DNA of 33,624 nucleotides, from assembly GCA_002787295.1 (NCBI GenBank), contig PCWJ01000024.1:29931-63554 (forward strand), in the 5' to 3' direction. Both the position numbers and the translations under genes were made by a program. This stretch comes from Candidatus Nealsonbacteria bacterium CG11_big_fil_rev_8_21_14_0_20_37_68 (GTDB lineage: Bacteria; Patescibacteriota; Minisyncoccia; Minisyncoccales; GCA-002782225). The stretch's first letter is position 1. Every line of letters starts with the position of its first letter. Under the pieces are notes generated by a model. That model did not search any database and was not told the origin of the DNA. It worked only from the letters and a program-made list of their open reading frames with translations. Positions 5,051 through 33,480 of the stretch are shown piece by piece.

Positions 5051-5056
5051 AACCGA

Positions 5057-5073
5057 CGGAGAACAGTTCTCCG
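5057..5073. terminator. Hairpin between convergent ligA and mfd
   Basis: CGGAGAAC-a-GTTCTCCG. On the minus strand it is followed by tcggTTTTATTTTA, so it fits best as the mfd terminator. Confidence 0.6.
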
Positions 5074-5098
5074 CCGAATTAAAAGAGTTATATTTTTT

Positions 5099-10157: not shown

Positions 10158-10350
10158 GGAGAGGGGTCGGGACGGGTCGCAAGAGTTCTCCGCGAAGCGG
10201 AAACTCCCGACCTAGAACCTTTCGGTTCTCCCGTGTAGGAAAACAGGGAGCGAAGCGACCGCCAGAAACCGAGGGTTTCTGGAGAGCGAGCCCGAACCGA
10301 GCACATAAGTTATGTGCTCGGGCCAGCCGAAGGCTGGGGAGGGCGAGCGA
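10158..10350. repeat. GC-rich mosaic of at least 6 hairpins (hit-rpsU spacer); candidate structured RNA or nested REP cluster
   Basis: Hairpins seen: GGTCGGGA..TCCCGACC (10165-10212), CCGC-gaa-GCGG, AGAACC-tttc-GGTTCT, CCAGAAACC-gag-GGTTTCTGG (10262-10282), GAGCACATA-agt-TATGTGCTC (10299-10319) and CCAGCC-gaa-GGCTGG (10323-10337). Confidence 0.8.
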
Positions 10351-17482: not shown

Positions 17483-19078
17483 ATGACCAAATCGAAGATT
17501 TTCCTCTATTTTTGTCTTTCTTTTATTGGGGGAATATTTCTGAGTTCTACTATCTTTGTTCCTGCGCTGGGATTCTCGCTAGGTAGTAGAGTTTATCTCT
17601 TACTACCGGGTTTAATTTTGGGGATTTTGCTAATTTCGATACTTTGGCAATATAAAAAAATTGTTGTTATTGGATTTTGTATTCTATTTTTGGTTGCCGG
17701 AATTTACCGTCACCAACAAGCCGAATTAAAAATTATAAATAACGAATTAAAATCCCACAACGATACCGGCAAAGAGATTATTTTAACAGGGGTAATTTCA
17801 AAAGAAGCCGACATAAGGTCAAATAATATAAAACTAATAATAACACCTGAAGAAATTCAAAATGCCGCAAACCTTCAAAATGCCGAGAACCGTTCTCGGC
17901 ATTTTGAAGGTAGGGTTTTGGTTACAACTAATCGATATCCTGAATATCAATATGGGGATAAATTAAAAATTACCGGAGAATTAAAAGCTCCCATCGAATT
18001 CGAAGATTTTAATTATAAAGATTATTTAGCTAAAGATGGAATTTATTCGGTAATGTACTATCCCAAAATTAAGCTATTAGAAAGAGAAAAATCCATAGGT
18101 CCGACCTATGTAATTTACAGCCAAATTTTATCTTTTAAAAATAAGTTGATGGAAAGCATTTATCAAAATCTTTCTCCGCCCCAATCTTCAATTCTGGGAG
18201 CGGTAATTTTGGGAGATAAAAGAAAAATTTCTGATGAGTGGAAACAAAAACTAAACATTGTCGGGGTGAGACACATTACTGCCGTTTCCGGAATGCATGT
18301 AGCAATTTTAACTACTATTTTAATGACTCTGTTGCTTGGTCTTGGTTTTTGGCGGCAGCAGGCTTTTTATTTTTCAATAGTCTTTGTTGCTTTTTTTGTA
18401 ATTATGACCGGTCTTCAGCCTTCGGCAATAAGAGCCGGAATTATGGGAGGATTGTTTTTGCTGGCCCAATATTTGGGAAGGCAGAAATTTGCCACCAATG
18501 CTCTTTTGTTGGCGGCAGTGGTAATGTTGGCAATTAATCCCTTGCTTTTAAAATTAGATGTTGGTTTTCAGTTATCCTTTTTGGCAGTTCTGGGAATCAT
18601 TTATTTAATGCCTATTTTTCAATATTATTTTCGAAAGTGGTTATCACCAGAGTGGTTTCAAAAATGTTGGTGGCTAAGTTGGCTACCGATAAAATCTATC
18701 GGCGACATTTTGGCTATGACCCTATCCGCTCAAGTTTTCACCTTGCCGATTTTAATTTATAATTTTGGCTATATGTCTTTAGTGGCTCCGATAACCAACC
18801 TTTTAATAGTTCCGTTTTTGTCCTACATTATGGGATTGGGTTTTCTTTTTGGAATTTTTGGAATAATCTCCCAGTTTCTGGGTTGGGTTTTTTCCTGGCC
18901 AGCCTGGTTACTTTTAACCTACTTAACAAAAATAGTAGATTTCTTTTCTCAAATTCCTTTGGCTTTTATAACCATAGAAAATTTGCATTGGGCATGGTTA
19001 ATAATTGCCTATTTAATTTTGGGCTATTTTACTTGGCGAATATCGCAAAAGCAAAAATTAAAGTTTTTAAATTATTAA
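17483..19078 (+). CDS. comEC: ComEC/Rec2-family DNA uptake channel (no C-terminal metallo-beta-lactamase domain)
   Basis: 531 aa, polytopic. N-terminal OB-like region (GRVLVTT..YGDKLKITGELK) then the competence domain (GVRHITAVSGMHVAIL). Contains a 39-nt palindrome at 17872-17910. Confidence 0.85.
   Translation: MTKSKIFLYFCLSFIGGIFLSSTIFVPALGFSLGSRVYLLLPGLILGILLISILWQYKKIVVIGFCILFLVAGIYRHQQAELKIINNELKSHNDTGKEIILTGVISKEADIRSNNIKLIITPEEIQNAANLQNAENRSRHFEGRVLVTTNRYPEYQYGDKLKITGELKAPIEFEDFNYKDYLAKDGIYSVMYYPKIKLLEREKSIGPTYVIYSQILSFKNKLMESIYQNLSPPQSSILGAVILGDKRKISDEWKQKLNIVGVRHITAVSGMHVAILTTILMTLLLGLGFWRQQAFYFSIVFVAFFVIMTGLQPSAIRAGIMGGLFLLAQYLGRQKFATNALLLAAVVMLAINPLLLKLDVGFQLSFLAVLGIIYLMPIFQYYFRKWLSPEWFQKCWWLSWLPIKSIGDILAMTLSAQVFTLPILIYNFGYMSLVAPITNLLIVPFLSYIMGLGFLFGIFGIISQFLGWVFSWPAWLLLTYLTKIVDFFSQIPLAFITIENLHWAWLIIAYLILGYFTWRISQKQKLKFLNY
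17872..17910. repeat. 39-nt perfect palindrome in comEC
   Basis: CCTTCAAAATGCCGAGAAC-c-GTTCTCGGCATTTTGAAGG, with 19-bp arms. TTCAAAATGCCG is also present as a direct repeat at 17856-17867. Confidence 0.9.
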
Positions 19079-27467: not shown

Positions 27468-28955
27468 ATGTCAATATACGATTTGCCAAAATTTGACCCC
27501 GTTAGAAATTTTTTTAAAAAATTCAAAAAAGTAAAACTAACGGGAATTTCTAACGGGGTTGAATTACCCAAATTAAACCCTCCTAAGTTTTTTTTCAAAA
27601 AATTTGGGAGGGTAAAAGTCCCAAAACCCAGCACCAGAGCAGGGCTCGGTGCTGGACAGTCCCGAAGTGAGCTTAGCTCTAGTTCGGGGCTCGGTTCTGG
27701 ACCTTGGGGGAATAAAGCCGTTATTATTTTTTTGATAATTTTAATTTCTTTTATTTTTGGAGGCATAGGTGGAATCTTTACCGGCAGTTATTTTTATTCC
27801 CGGGTAGAAGATTACCTTAAAAAATTAAACATCCAGATTCCCCAGGTTGAAAAAGAAACAATAATCGAAAAAGAGTACGTTCCCGAGACCTCTCAAGAAG
27901 AAAAAACAATTAATGTGGTGAAAGAGGCATCCCCTTCGGTGGTAAGTATTATTATTACTAAAGACCTTCCAGTTGTTGAGCAATTCTACTATAACCCCCT
28001 TAAGGAATTTGAAGAATTTTTTGGGCCCCTTGGCCTTGAGTTTGAAGTTCCTCAGTATCAAGAAAAAGGAACCGAGAAAAAGGAAATTGGAGGAGGAACC
28101 GGTTTTATTATTTCTGAAGACGGAATGATTTTGACCAACCGCCATGTGGTCTTAGATAAAGAAGCAGATTACACTGTTTTAACCAACGAGGGTCAAAAAT
28201 ACCCGGCTAAAGTTTTAGCTCGAGACCCAATCAAAGATTTGGCTGTAATTAAGGTTGAAAGCGAAAAGAAATTTGAGCCCTTAAAATTGGGAGATTCCGA
28301 CAAACTTCAGCCGGGCCAGACCGTGATTGCGATTGGCAATGCTCTTGGAGAATTTCGAAATACGGTTTCTGCCGGCGTAGTTTCCGGGCTAAAGAGAACC
28401 GTTGCTGCTTCCGGCGGAGGCCAAACCGAAGTTTTAGAAAATGTAATTCAGACCGATGCCGCTATTAATCTAGGGAATTCCGGCGGTCCTTTGTTAAATT
28501 TACAAGGGGAGGTGATTGGAGTTAATGTAGCTGTGGCTCAGGTAGCGGAAAATATTGGTTTTGCTATTCCCATCAATGAAGCCAAAAAAGACATTGAGCA
28601 GGTTAAAACCTTGGGCAAAATTGTCTATCCCTTTTTGGGAATTTATTACATTGTGATTACCCCCGAACTTAAAGAAAAATTTAACTTGCCGGTTGATTAC
28701 GGAGCCTGGATTGGCAGAAATGAAAAAGGAGAATACACTGAAGAAGCAATTTTTTCCAATTCGGCCGCCGAGAAAATCGGTTTAAAAAGAGATGATATTA
28801 TTCTGGAGTTTGACGGCAAAAAAATTACTTCAGAAAATCCTTTAGCTAAAATTATTCTGGGATATAACCCGGGGGACAAAATTTCGTTAAAGGTTTTAAG
28901 AGACAACAAAGAGGAAATTTTTCCGGTTATTCTTGGCGAGAGAAGCGAAGATTAA
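27468..28955 (+). CDS. htrA: HtrA/DegP-type serine protease with PDZ domain
   Basis: 495 aa. Intact triad contexts (LTNRHVV, KDLAVIKV, GNSGGPL), a C-terminal PDZ domain and one TM helix. The N-terminal ~80 aa are encoded by repeats and palindromes. Confidence 0.88.
   Translation: MSIYDLPKFDPVRNFFKKFKKVKLTGISNGVELPKLNPPKFFFKKFGRVKVPKPSTRAGLGAGQSRSELSSSSGLGSGPWGNKAVIIFLIILISFIFGGIGGIFTGSYFYSRVEDYLKKLNIQIPQVEKETIIEKEYVPETSQEEKTINVVKEASPSVVSIIITKDLPVVEQFYYNPLKEFEEFFGPLGLEFEVPQYQEKGTEKKEIGGGTGFIISEDGMILTNRHVVLDKEADYTVLTNEGQKYPAKVLARDPIKDLAVIKVESEKKFEPLKLGDSDKLQPGQTVIAIGNALGEFRNTVSAGVVSGLKRTVAASGGGQTEVLENVIQTDAAINLGNSGGPLLNLQGEVIGVNVAVAQVAENIGFAIPINEAKKDIEQVKTLGKIVYPFLGIYYIVITPELKEKFNLPVDYGAWIGRNEKGEYTEEAIFSNSAAEKIGLKRDDIILEFDGKKITSENPLAKIILGYNPGDKISLKVLRDNKEEIFPVILGERSED
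27497..27558. repeat. 14-bp perfect inverted repeat in the htrA 5' coding region
   Basis: CCCCGTTAGAAATT (27497-27510) and AATTTCTAACGGGG (27545-27558), plus an extra CTAACGGG at 27537-27544. Confidence 0.85.
27625..27703 (+). repeat. Family A two-hairpin core, in-frame in htrA
   Basis: By hand alignment, 27627-27690 differs from 14302-14365 at about 5 of 64 positions. Confidence 0.85.
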
Positions 28956-32646: not shown

Positions 32647-32682
32647 GGGATGGCTCCCCGGCACGTGCCGGGGAGCCATCCC
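32647..32682. repeat. Perfect 36-bp palindrome
   Basis: GGGATGGCTCCCCGGCAC|GTGCCGGGGAGCCATCCC, ending 33 nt upstream of the RAYT ATG. Confidence 0.9.
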
Positions 32683-32714
32683 AACTCTAGAGAAGCCATC
32701 TCTGTAATAAACCT

Positions 32715-33452
32715 ATGCCAATAAAACATCCACAATTTGTTAATGGAGAAATCTATCACATTATAGTTAGGGGAATTGCCGGTCAAAAAACTTTTTTAGA
32801 CGATAAAGATCGTCTGAGATATCTTTTTAATTTGTATAAATTTAATAATAAAAATATAGTTATTCGTAATCCCTCTTACCGGGAAGCCATCCCGGTAGTC
32901 TACCGGGATGGCTTCCCGGTGCTGTTGGAGACAGAAAGGGAAAAGCCAAGAGATTTATTAATTGAACTTTTAGCCGTTTGTTTAGTGCCCAATCATATTC
33001 ATTTATTAGTTCGTCAGGCTGACGACGGCGGTGTTTCTTTATTTTTCCAAAAAATGGGCGGTTATGCCAGTTATTTTAATAAAAAATACCAAAGATTTGG
33101 TTCTTTATTTCAGCGACCATTTAAAGCTATTCATATCAAAACTAATGACCAATTATTAATTGTCACTACCTATATTCATTTAAATTTAATTGATTTAATT
33201 GAGCCAAACTGGAAAATTAAGGGTATTTCCGATCCTCAAAAGATTATGGATTTTTTAGAAACTTATCCTTGGTCAAGCTATCCTTATTATTTGGGAAAAT
33301 CAAATCTTTCTTGGCTAATTAATTCTGATTTTCTAAATAAAATTTTAAAAAGGCCCGAGGATTTTCGGAATTTTGTTAAGGCTCGGATTTTTCAGAAAAC
33401 TGAACTAAAAAATTTTTTAAAGAAGACCAAAGAAATTGAGAAGTTTTTCTGA
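32715..33452 (+). CDS. REP-associated tyrosine transposase-like protein (HUH / Y1, IS200-like fold)
   Basis: 245 aa. N-terminal YHIIVRG, HUH motif in PNHIHLLV, and a Tyr ~57 aa downstream in TTYIHLN. No TnpB partner. Flanked and interrupted by related palindromes. Confidence 0.8.
   Translation: MPIKHPQFVNGEIYHIIVRGIAGQKTFLDDKDRLRYLFNLYKFNNKNIVIRNPSYREAIPVVYRDGFPVLLETEREKPRDLLIELLAVCLVPNHIHLLVRQADDGGVSLFFQKMGGYASYFNKKYQRFGSLFQRPFKAIHIKTNDQLLIVTTYIHLNLIDLIEPNWKIKGISDPQKIMDFLETYPWSSYPYYLGKSNLSWLINSDFLNKILKRPEDFRNFVKARIFQKTELKNFLKKTKEIEKFF
32878..32920. repeat. 43-nt palindrome inside the RAYT CDS
   Basis: ACCGGGAAGCCATCCCGGTA-gtc-TACCGGGATGGCTTCCCGGT, with 20-bp perfect arms. Each arm is itself a small hairpin. 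Confidence 0.9.
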
Positions 33453-33455
33453 TAG

Positions 33456-33480
33456 TCTACCGGGAAGACTTCCCGGTAGA
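33456..33480. repeat. REP-like palindrome, right of the RAYT gene
   Basis: 12-bp perfect arms TCTACCGGGAAG/CTTCCCGGTAGA around a central a. Starts 4 nt after the RAYT stop. Confidence 0.88.

Follow-up and report, generated by a model that had tools for sequence, protein, structure and literature searches.

What is a long perfect palindrome doing inside a protein-coding gene, and how did it come to be there? The question is raised by the window analysed here, a 33,624-nt stretch of contig PCWJ01000024.1 (positions 29,931 to 63,554) from the patescibacterium Candidatus Nealsonbacteria bacterium CG11_big_fil_rev_8_21_14_0_20_37_68, in which such a palindrome lies within the competence gene comEC. 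Our analysis indicates that the comEC palindrome is probably an intragenic copy of a hairpin repeat of the repetitive extragenic palindromic (REP) type. The repeat has an invariant tip, GAGAAC-N-GTTCTC, and would be cognate to Y1 (HUH) genes of the REP-associated tyrosine transposase (RAYT) type in related genomes; the comEC copy would have been elaborated locally and is probably an immobile orphan.

The palindrome spans window positions 17871–17911. It comprises 41 nt, with a single central base (C17891) between two 20-nt arms (17871–17890 and 17892–17911) that are 100% complementary. A preliminary description of the same DNA had reported 39 nt with 19-bp arms; the palindrome exists as reported and is slightly larger. 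It lies in frame within the open reading frame (ORF) at 17483–19078 (+), consistent with the earlier placement within the comEC coding sequence. Specifically, the 531-aa product contains the Pfam domains DUF4131 (residues 36–198; OB-fold) and Competence (residues 242–521), and the palindrome encodes the peptide NLQNAENRSRHFEG. The family core, GAGAAC-C-GTTCTC, occupies 17885–17897 and is translated as E-N-R-S and the first base of R. The predicted folding energy is −34.5 kcal/mol for RNA (z −6.3) and −24 kcal/mol for DNA (z −7.2).

Immediately upstream, positions 17856–17873 (+) form a tandem copy of the left arm, with 16 of 18 bases the same as at 17874–17891 and the core altered to GCAAAC. 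A direct repeat had been recognized here before as 12 nt (17856–17867); it is 18 nt long. In the protein it appears as a six-codon tandem duplication, IQNAAN|LQNAEN, and the region reads as three 18-nt units, IQNAAN, LQNAEN and RSRHFE, of which the first two are direct and the third is inverted. Compared with orthologues that have an empty site, the whole in-frame insert is 48 nt (17858–17905, +; Q126–F141), of which about 30 nt were inherited and the other 18 nt are the duplicate.

The comEC palindrome is real, and it is fixed across the population sampled. The window ComEC belongs to a 90% identity cluster of 19 members, and all 12 members aligned keep QNAANLQNAENRSRHFEG unchanged, while point variants are present elsewhere in the protein. 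The 15 listed cluster members sit on >100 contigs from NCBI, JGI and ENA, and the 483-aa forms in the cluster differ in the called start only. An independent contig (L153) differs from the window at 3 of 1596 comEC bases, none of them inside the palindrome.

The palindrome belongs to a family. The window's genome assembly (G000; 645,630 bp, 60 contigs, 37% G+C, 93.6% complete) contains 17 exact sites of the core GAGAACNGTTCTC, compared with 0.0 expected from Markov simulations, which bears out the earlier expectation of genome-wide enrichment. One-mismatch cores number 16, with 0.8 expected, and about six of these carry a true stem mismatch. The family amounts to ~27–33 copies in 646 kb. All 27 sites with a GAGAA-NNN-TTCTC centre extend outward perfectly, with total arms of 7–20 nt; the extension beyond the core has a median of +6 nt, compared with ~0.4 by chance. 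The half-site GAGAAC, seen 292 times where ~280 are expected, shows no enrichment, and therefore the family unit is the palindrome and not a word. The preliminary description had judged so long a palindrome in a coding sequence unlikely to persist by chance, and three comparisons exclude chance: the core counts, its absence from 100 of 100 shuffles of the window, and the number of perfect palindromes with arms of at least 12 nt (84 in the genome, 1.8 expected under a first-order Markov model).

The members are defined by the GAGAAC-N-GTTCTC core, to which the preliminary description had drawn attention, and not by their flanks. The arms in the window's genome are heterogeneous and fall into subfamilies (TTAGCGAGAAC, seven to eight copies; CTACGAGAAC, three copies; and others), besides which there are singletons, the comEC copy among them. 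Two sister copies lie in the window and had been said to share the same core. In the convergent ligA/mfd spacer this is correct: the copy at 5053–5077 (perfect part 5057–5073) has the exact core at 5059–5071 and scores as a terminator for mfd. In topA (1434–1462, in frame on the minus strand, KTNENVSRWF, 13-nt arms) the core is a variant, GAGAA-ACG-TTCTC. No intrinsic terminator was found at the comEC copy, which has no terminator tail 3' of the hairpin, and a comparison with Rfam gave no match for this hairpin apart from sub-threshold miRNA-hairpin noise.

Short spacers, in most cases directly 3' of a gene, contain about 12 copies in the window's genome, and 14–15 of the 27 lie inside long ORFs. 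Ten of 14 coding copies share one frame, E-N-x-S-R. From their translations we take 11 of the coding hosts to be enolase, a DegT-type aminotransferase, CTP synthase, a MurE-like ligase, MurC, TopA, a P-type ATPase, IspH, an ELP3-like radical-SAM protein, trigger factor and MltG. The remaining hosts are ComEC and two proteins that the translations did not let us name; ComEC and TopA are the hosts checked with Pfam. A reason at the protein level for E-N-x-S was considered and rejected, because most hosts read as cytoplasmic enzymes, the core also occurs in spacers and in other frames, and its bases are kept where residues vary.

The link to transposases comes from related genomes. Of 151 genomes in the order, 55 contain the core, and these represent 47 of 120 genera; a single genome has as many as 29 copies, compared with 0–2 of a reversed control pattern. 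The Y1_Tnp domain (PF01797) is found in 77 of the 151 genomes, and it is concentrated where the core is abundant: 21 of the 26 genomes with at least five cores have it, versus 56 of the other 125 (odds ratio 5.2, p = 0.001, Spearman 0.34; values not corrected for phylogeny).

We retrieved the RAYT loci of the high-copy genomes and inspected them for GAGAAC palindromes. RAYT ORFs of ~240–280 aa in G124, G134 (three loci), G092, G141 and G133 are flanked by such palindromes on one side or on both, contain them within the coding sequence, or combine the two arrangements, and the single RAYT of G119 has cores on either side. Six GAGAAC-bracketed ORFs score above the PF01797 cut-off. The outer arms of the palindromes differ from locus to locus. 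In G124, the single RAYT is bracketed by ..TTTTCCCGAGAACTGTTCTCGGGAAAA.., and all 10 dispersed copies in that genome carry the TTCCCGAGAAC..GTTCTCGGGAA arms of the RAYT-flanking copies; in G092, the dispersed copies match the RAYT-flanking arms only partly and show more decay. REP and REPIN elements are defined by their tie to RAYT transposases flanked by the same repeat (PMC3116915; PMC3733652). Because the repeat brackets RAYT genes and the dispersed G124 copies match, this evidence identifies GAGAAC-N-GTTCTC as a putative repeat of the REP type, whose cognate RAYT transposases are those of the related genomes.

The cores of G119 often occur in pairs 30–70 nt apart (C1:14211/14241, C2:2484/2518, C6:17573/17640, C9:3837/3875, C11:9604/9670 and C36:30/70). 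These doublets are a REPIN-like arrangement, which is absent from the window's genome.

The window also contains a RAYT-like Y1 transposase gene (32715–33452, +), the only one in its genome, which is not cognate to the GAGAAC family. It is bracketed by palindromes of another type, CCGGGA..TCCCGG(TAG), at 32647–32682, 32878–32920 and 33456–33480. Its protein is 40–47% identical to GAGAAC-type RAYTs and in a tree groups with the RAYT of G139, outside the clade that holds all GAGAAC-type RAYTs. Neither a second Y1 locus nor a remnant of a cognate RAYT was found in the window's genome with the Pfam profile and with tblastn using 17 RAYT proteins. Since the sole RAYT of the genome comes from another clade and has another REP, the comEC copy is most likely an orphan that is immobile and decays slowly, neither active nor serving the host. 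The heterogeneous arms in this genome, as opposed to the uniform arms in G124, fit an old population without its enzyme, and REPINs are expected to decay slowly once the RAYT is lost (10.1101/2021.07.10.451892).

The palindromes of the window RAYT lie before, inside (in frame, 32878–32920) and after its coding sequence, over 32647–33480. The same three-copy layout is seen at the GAGAAC-type RAYT loci L142, L146, L147 and L148.

How did the comEC copy reach its present form? Among 116 aligned ComEC orthologues, the site is without an insert in 55, has an ENxS insert in 11 and has another insert in 50, many of which look decayed, e.g. ETKENGGRLPPI, LTEDGPRTT and NWNEKCSRSI. On a ComEC tree built without the insert columns, presence and absence require at least 19 changes, compared with 38 for shuffled labels, and the intact state requires 9 changes for 11 tips; therefore clean gain or loss recurs. 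The history of the site may be a single ancient insertion or recurrent insertion, both of which are compatible with the tree. TopA, examined across 30 relatives, has the same patchy presence.

The window's clade in this tree has a support of 96. Within it, the insert measures 30 nt in P0010 and 33 nt in P0004, with arms of 6 and 9 nt, respectively, while P0003, the sister of P0010, has a cleanly empty site (..ATA|AAG GGC..). The G028 insert (EEI-KTVENSSRPI-EGRVLV) matches that of the window (EEI-QNAENRSRHF-EGRVLV, minus the duplicate) in length and frame, and is palindromic over a 15-nt core only. The comparison with P0004, P0010 and G028 indicates that the insert was inherited, and points to an ancestor of the window lineage with an in-frame copy of ~30 nt in the OB-fold loop of ComEC. 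The 17–20-nt arms arose in the window lineage by substitutions, with the length unchanged. The 18-nt duplicate, absent from the nearest insert-bearing relatives, is likewise lineage-specific.

A sequence of events can be outlined. A copy of ~30 nt was present in frame in the ancestral ComEC loop, translated as E-N-x-S-R plus flanks, and would have been tolerated for lack of constraint on the loop. In the window lineage, the stem then grew by substitution from about 6–9 to 17–20 perfect pairs, possibly as one arm was copied onto the other in a hairpin-templated (snap-back) manner. One arm was also duplicated in tandem (18 nt, six codons), possibly by replication slippage at the hairpin.

In an AlphaFold model of ComEC (mean pLDDT 74), residues 126–141 lie in the OB-fold domain between β-strands 115–127 and 144–150, and pLDDT falls below 50 at residues 134–137. 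The predicted picture is that of a tolerated surface loop.

For the upstream repeat, the preliminary description had offered either a duplicated target or a slipped copy, of which the slipped tandem copy stands. Target-site duplication was rejected as the source: none of the 21 other family members with arms of at least 10 nt was scored as having an adjacent arm copy, and P0004 and P0010, the closest insert-bearing relatives, have no upstream duplicate. Apart from comEC, arm duplication is hinted at only in the DegT-type aminotransferase gene (C4:11279–11317), where a degenerate and partial tandem copy of the right arm, SRWL|SRWL, comes after AACCATCGAGAACAGTTCTCGATGGTT.

The ComEC loop and its surroundings are variable in other genomes as well. 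Unrelated perfect in-frame palindromes with 10–15-nt arms occupy the same loop in other Patescibacteria (L011, L034, L052, L054, L057, L062 and L080); one of them, in a Moranbacteria genome, is a REPIN-like double hairpin, GGACACTGGGTGTCC-TT-GGACACCCAGTGTCC. In G034 (L015), a nine-codon insert has a diverged core and is still a perfect palindrome with 11-nt arms. A second indel hotspot follows TP.VF, near FDPKSLRATGSPATEGGVGED in L186 (the P0003 ComEC). Some orthologues have a GC-rich insert of ~18 aa at this hotspot with small palindromes, e.g. GTCGCTGAGAGCGAC, and P0026, P0030 and P0055 have other inserts. In TopA, the conserved segment (I/V)EA.LQ is coded as a palindrome, ATTGAAGC..GCTTCAAT, in relatives (L160, L177, L159, L172 and L175), with 12-nt arms in G022 (L160) and 11-nt arms in G037 (L177). 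This suggests that seed palindromes tend to lengthen in Patescibacteria genomes with the TopA palindrome.

Several points weigh against reading the comEC palindrome as an orphaned REP copy. One comes from G030, the complete genome of a relative from a different family, which has 10 exact cores scattered on the chromosome. In TopA, the P-type ATPase and ComEC, cores lie at the same positions in G030 and in the window's genome, both of which are without a GAGAAC-bracketed RAYT (the copies in enolase, PyrG, MurE, MltG and DegT are specific to the latter). At these three sites, 12 of 12 core bases and 9 of 9 core codons are identical. The codons concerned are minor ones (GAG, 33% of Glu; AAC, 25% of Asn), and with a background codon identity of 55% at conserved residues the chance of such identity is ~0.003. 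Bases are kept where residues vary, namely in the centre codon NGT and at the C that opens the codon following Ser. By this comparison, core conservation exceeds the expectation for a neutral relic. The tie to transposases has its own exceptions: five genomes with at least five cores give no Y1 hit, and three RAYT-rich genomes have no core. Mobilisation of the GAGAAC hairpins by these RAYTs is putative, with indirect signs in the clean presence or absence of the insert in sister genes (P0010 and P0003) and in the copies specific to the window's genome, and the proposed snap-back and slippage origins derive from comparing end states. The copies in the window's genome are for the greater part intragenic, and they have no consistent GTAG or CGTC tag, both atypical for described REPs. 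At 93.6% completeness of the assembly, a cognate RAYT could also be unassembled.

The excess of core conservation needs either re-insertion or copy correction after the split of the two lineages, or selection on the DNA. The flanks bear on the choice. The pair flanking the core is C/G in 14 of 17 copies in the window's genome and G/C or A/T, never C/G, in G030. The central base of the core is likewise genome-specific, and at the ATPase site the flanking pairs change in a compensatory way. Orthologous copies resemble the paralogues of their own genome, a pattern of concerted evolution. It is conceivable, though we hold it only tentatively, that GAGAAC-N-GTTCTC hairpins, instead of decaying as parasites, are kept perfect and genome-uniform across the order by active copy correction or re-insertion, RAYT-driven or by snap-back, even where they are fixed in frame within essential genes, and that coding copies at orthologous sites change together with the paralogous copies around them in the genome.

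Selection on the DNA would imply that the hairpin, whatever its origin, is a cis element serving the host, either a site for a dimeric protein or a terminator, mRNA-processing or supercoiling hairpin, and that the comEC copy persists for this purpose. Such an element would explain why three orthologous coding sites have the same core across families where nearby synonymous sites have diverged, why its bases hold in the centre codon and in the codon after Ser while the residues vary, and why the ATPase flanks change in a compensatory way. It is also consistent with the fixed, invariant palindrome in the sampled population and with the spacer copy that scores as a terminator, and the 10–30 copies per genome in a mix of coding and spacer sites resemble known palindromic sites that organise chromosomes. 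However, the G030 sites show no clustering, which rules out an organising site concentrated at ori/ter or elsewhere on the chromosome, and the comEC copy itself has neither a terminator tail nor an Rfam match. The genome-specific flank consensus fits turnover from master copies better than static selection. In sister lineages the insert is cleanly lost or decays, and 96 of the 151 genomes are without any copy. Given that the element is readily lost in sister lineages and missing from two thirds of the order, we rate selection for a host function lower and consider it unlikely.

The remaining explanations fare worse. That the palindrome arose locally in comEC by template-switch errors and resembles the family by chance is improbable, since the 13-nt core is exact at 16 other sites in the genome, with a chance expectation near zero, and occurs at the same ComEC site in G028, G030, G037, JAHIOY01 and others. 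The unrelated perfect palindromes at this loop in different genomes, the arm length reached by substitutions with the overall length unchanged, and the perfect Watson–Crick arms without G–T pairs, suggestive of DNA-templated copying, do speak for local events, but snap-back copying explains the growth of the arms and not the core. The presence of comEC in this organism brings to mind a DNA uptake signal (a DNA uptake sequence, DUS, or uptake signal sequence, USS) enriched by comEC-dependent uptake; in other bacteria such sequences are also placed in coding frames that tolerate them and act as inverted-repeat terminators. We consider this very improbable, as only the full palindrome is enriched and not its half-site, the density is ~1 copy per 24–40 kb, and the core is missing from most genomes of the order. 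Least credible of all is an assembly or amplification artefact: amplified or misassembled DNA can yield long perfect palindromes by chimeric fold-back, but the identical sequence is found in independent assemblies from several sources on >100 contigs, the reading frame is intact, and orthologous inserts are present in many genomes.

Two further palindrome families and a composite arrangement were seen in the window's genome. The family CCGAGCACATAA-N-TTATGTGCTCGG has ~7 copies, one of them in the window at 10297–10321 (C11:40227–40251) and others on C1, C7, C9, C13, C15 and C46, and is also found in G030 at 356605 and 410612. A third family, with arms CCCCGTTAGAAA..TTTCTAACGGGG, lies at window 27490–27565 inside the ORF 27468–28955, and also at C4:12689, C30:12243 and C40:9223. 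Composite double hairpins, in which a TTAGCGAGAAG/C palindrome is directly followed by a GC-rich hairpin ACTGGCGGCGCC..GGCGCCGCCAGT, occur at C49:847–879, C49:1516–1544 and C18:3391–3415; the two on C49 flank a 128-aa ORF (985–1371).

The orphaned REP copy that we favour can be compared with three known systems. The correction of quasipalindromes by template switching is described for E. coli and would explain how an imperfect hairpin turns into a longer perfect one by clustered substitutions at constant length (G028, P0010 and P0004 compared with the window); that system, however, is a mutational mechanism and not an element family, and it does not explain the conserved core. Rickettsia palindromic elements (RPE) are ~100–150 bp long, and they are not known outside Rickettsia or to have a transposase. 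The GAGAAC element, in contrast, is 15–41 nt long, has a Patescibacteria host and is tied to RAYT genes, so that the likeness is in behaviour only. Specifically, in RPEs (cited in PMC3733652) and other coding palindromic repeats, as in the GAGAAC family, selfish palindromes lie in frame in housekeeping genes and are translated, mostly in one favoured frame, as extra surface loops.

The closest likeness is to the REP/REPIN–RAYT systems of Proteobacteria (Bertels & Rainey 2011, PMC3116915; Di Nocera et al. 2013, PMC3733652). Shared features are short hairpins in tens of copies, many of them 3' of genes, between co-directional or convergent ones; a repeat that brackets a usually single-copy Y1 gene; a genome-specific master sequence; doublets in some genomes (here G119); expected decay without the RAYT; and intragenic copies in some species, as known for Opitutus, Rickettsia and others (PMC3733652). 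Unlike in those systems, the invariant part of the GAGAAC family is the tip of the hairpin and not a GTAG/CGTC tag at its base. Such a tag, which marks the superfamilies of Di Nocera 2013, is in or near 4 of 17 copies in the window's genome, 2 of 10 in G030 and 5 of 23 at RAYT loci, with no fixed position. Further differences are that over half of the copies are intragenic and strongly biased in frame, the perfect stems of very variable length, the copies that RAYT genes have within their own coding sequence, the Patescibacteria host, and the lack of a cognate RAYT in the window's genome.

The finding is not a new kind of system. The type of selfish DNA is known, and the instance in Patescibacteria is one for which we found no description: our literature search returned no paper that joins RAYT with Patescibacteria, also called the Candidate Phyla Radiation (CPR), or that reports palindromic in-frame repeats there. 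It would extend REP/RAYT biology to the ultra-small Patescibacteria, in a form with a conserved tip, no GTAG tag and most copies translated in essential genes. It also means that lineage-specific loops in CPR proteins can be repeat-derived and not adaptive, and that such loops mark permissive sites in proteins such as ComEC, TopA, enolase and PyrG. In practice, long perfect hairpins in Patescibacteria genomes can confuse gene calling, alignment and assembly. Finally, the nucleotide-identical core with genome-specific flanks makes this family a tractable case for how REP populations persist.

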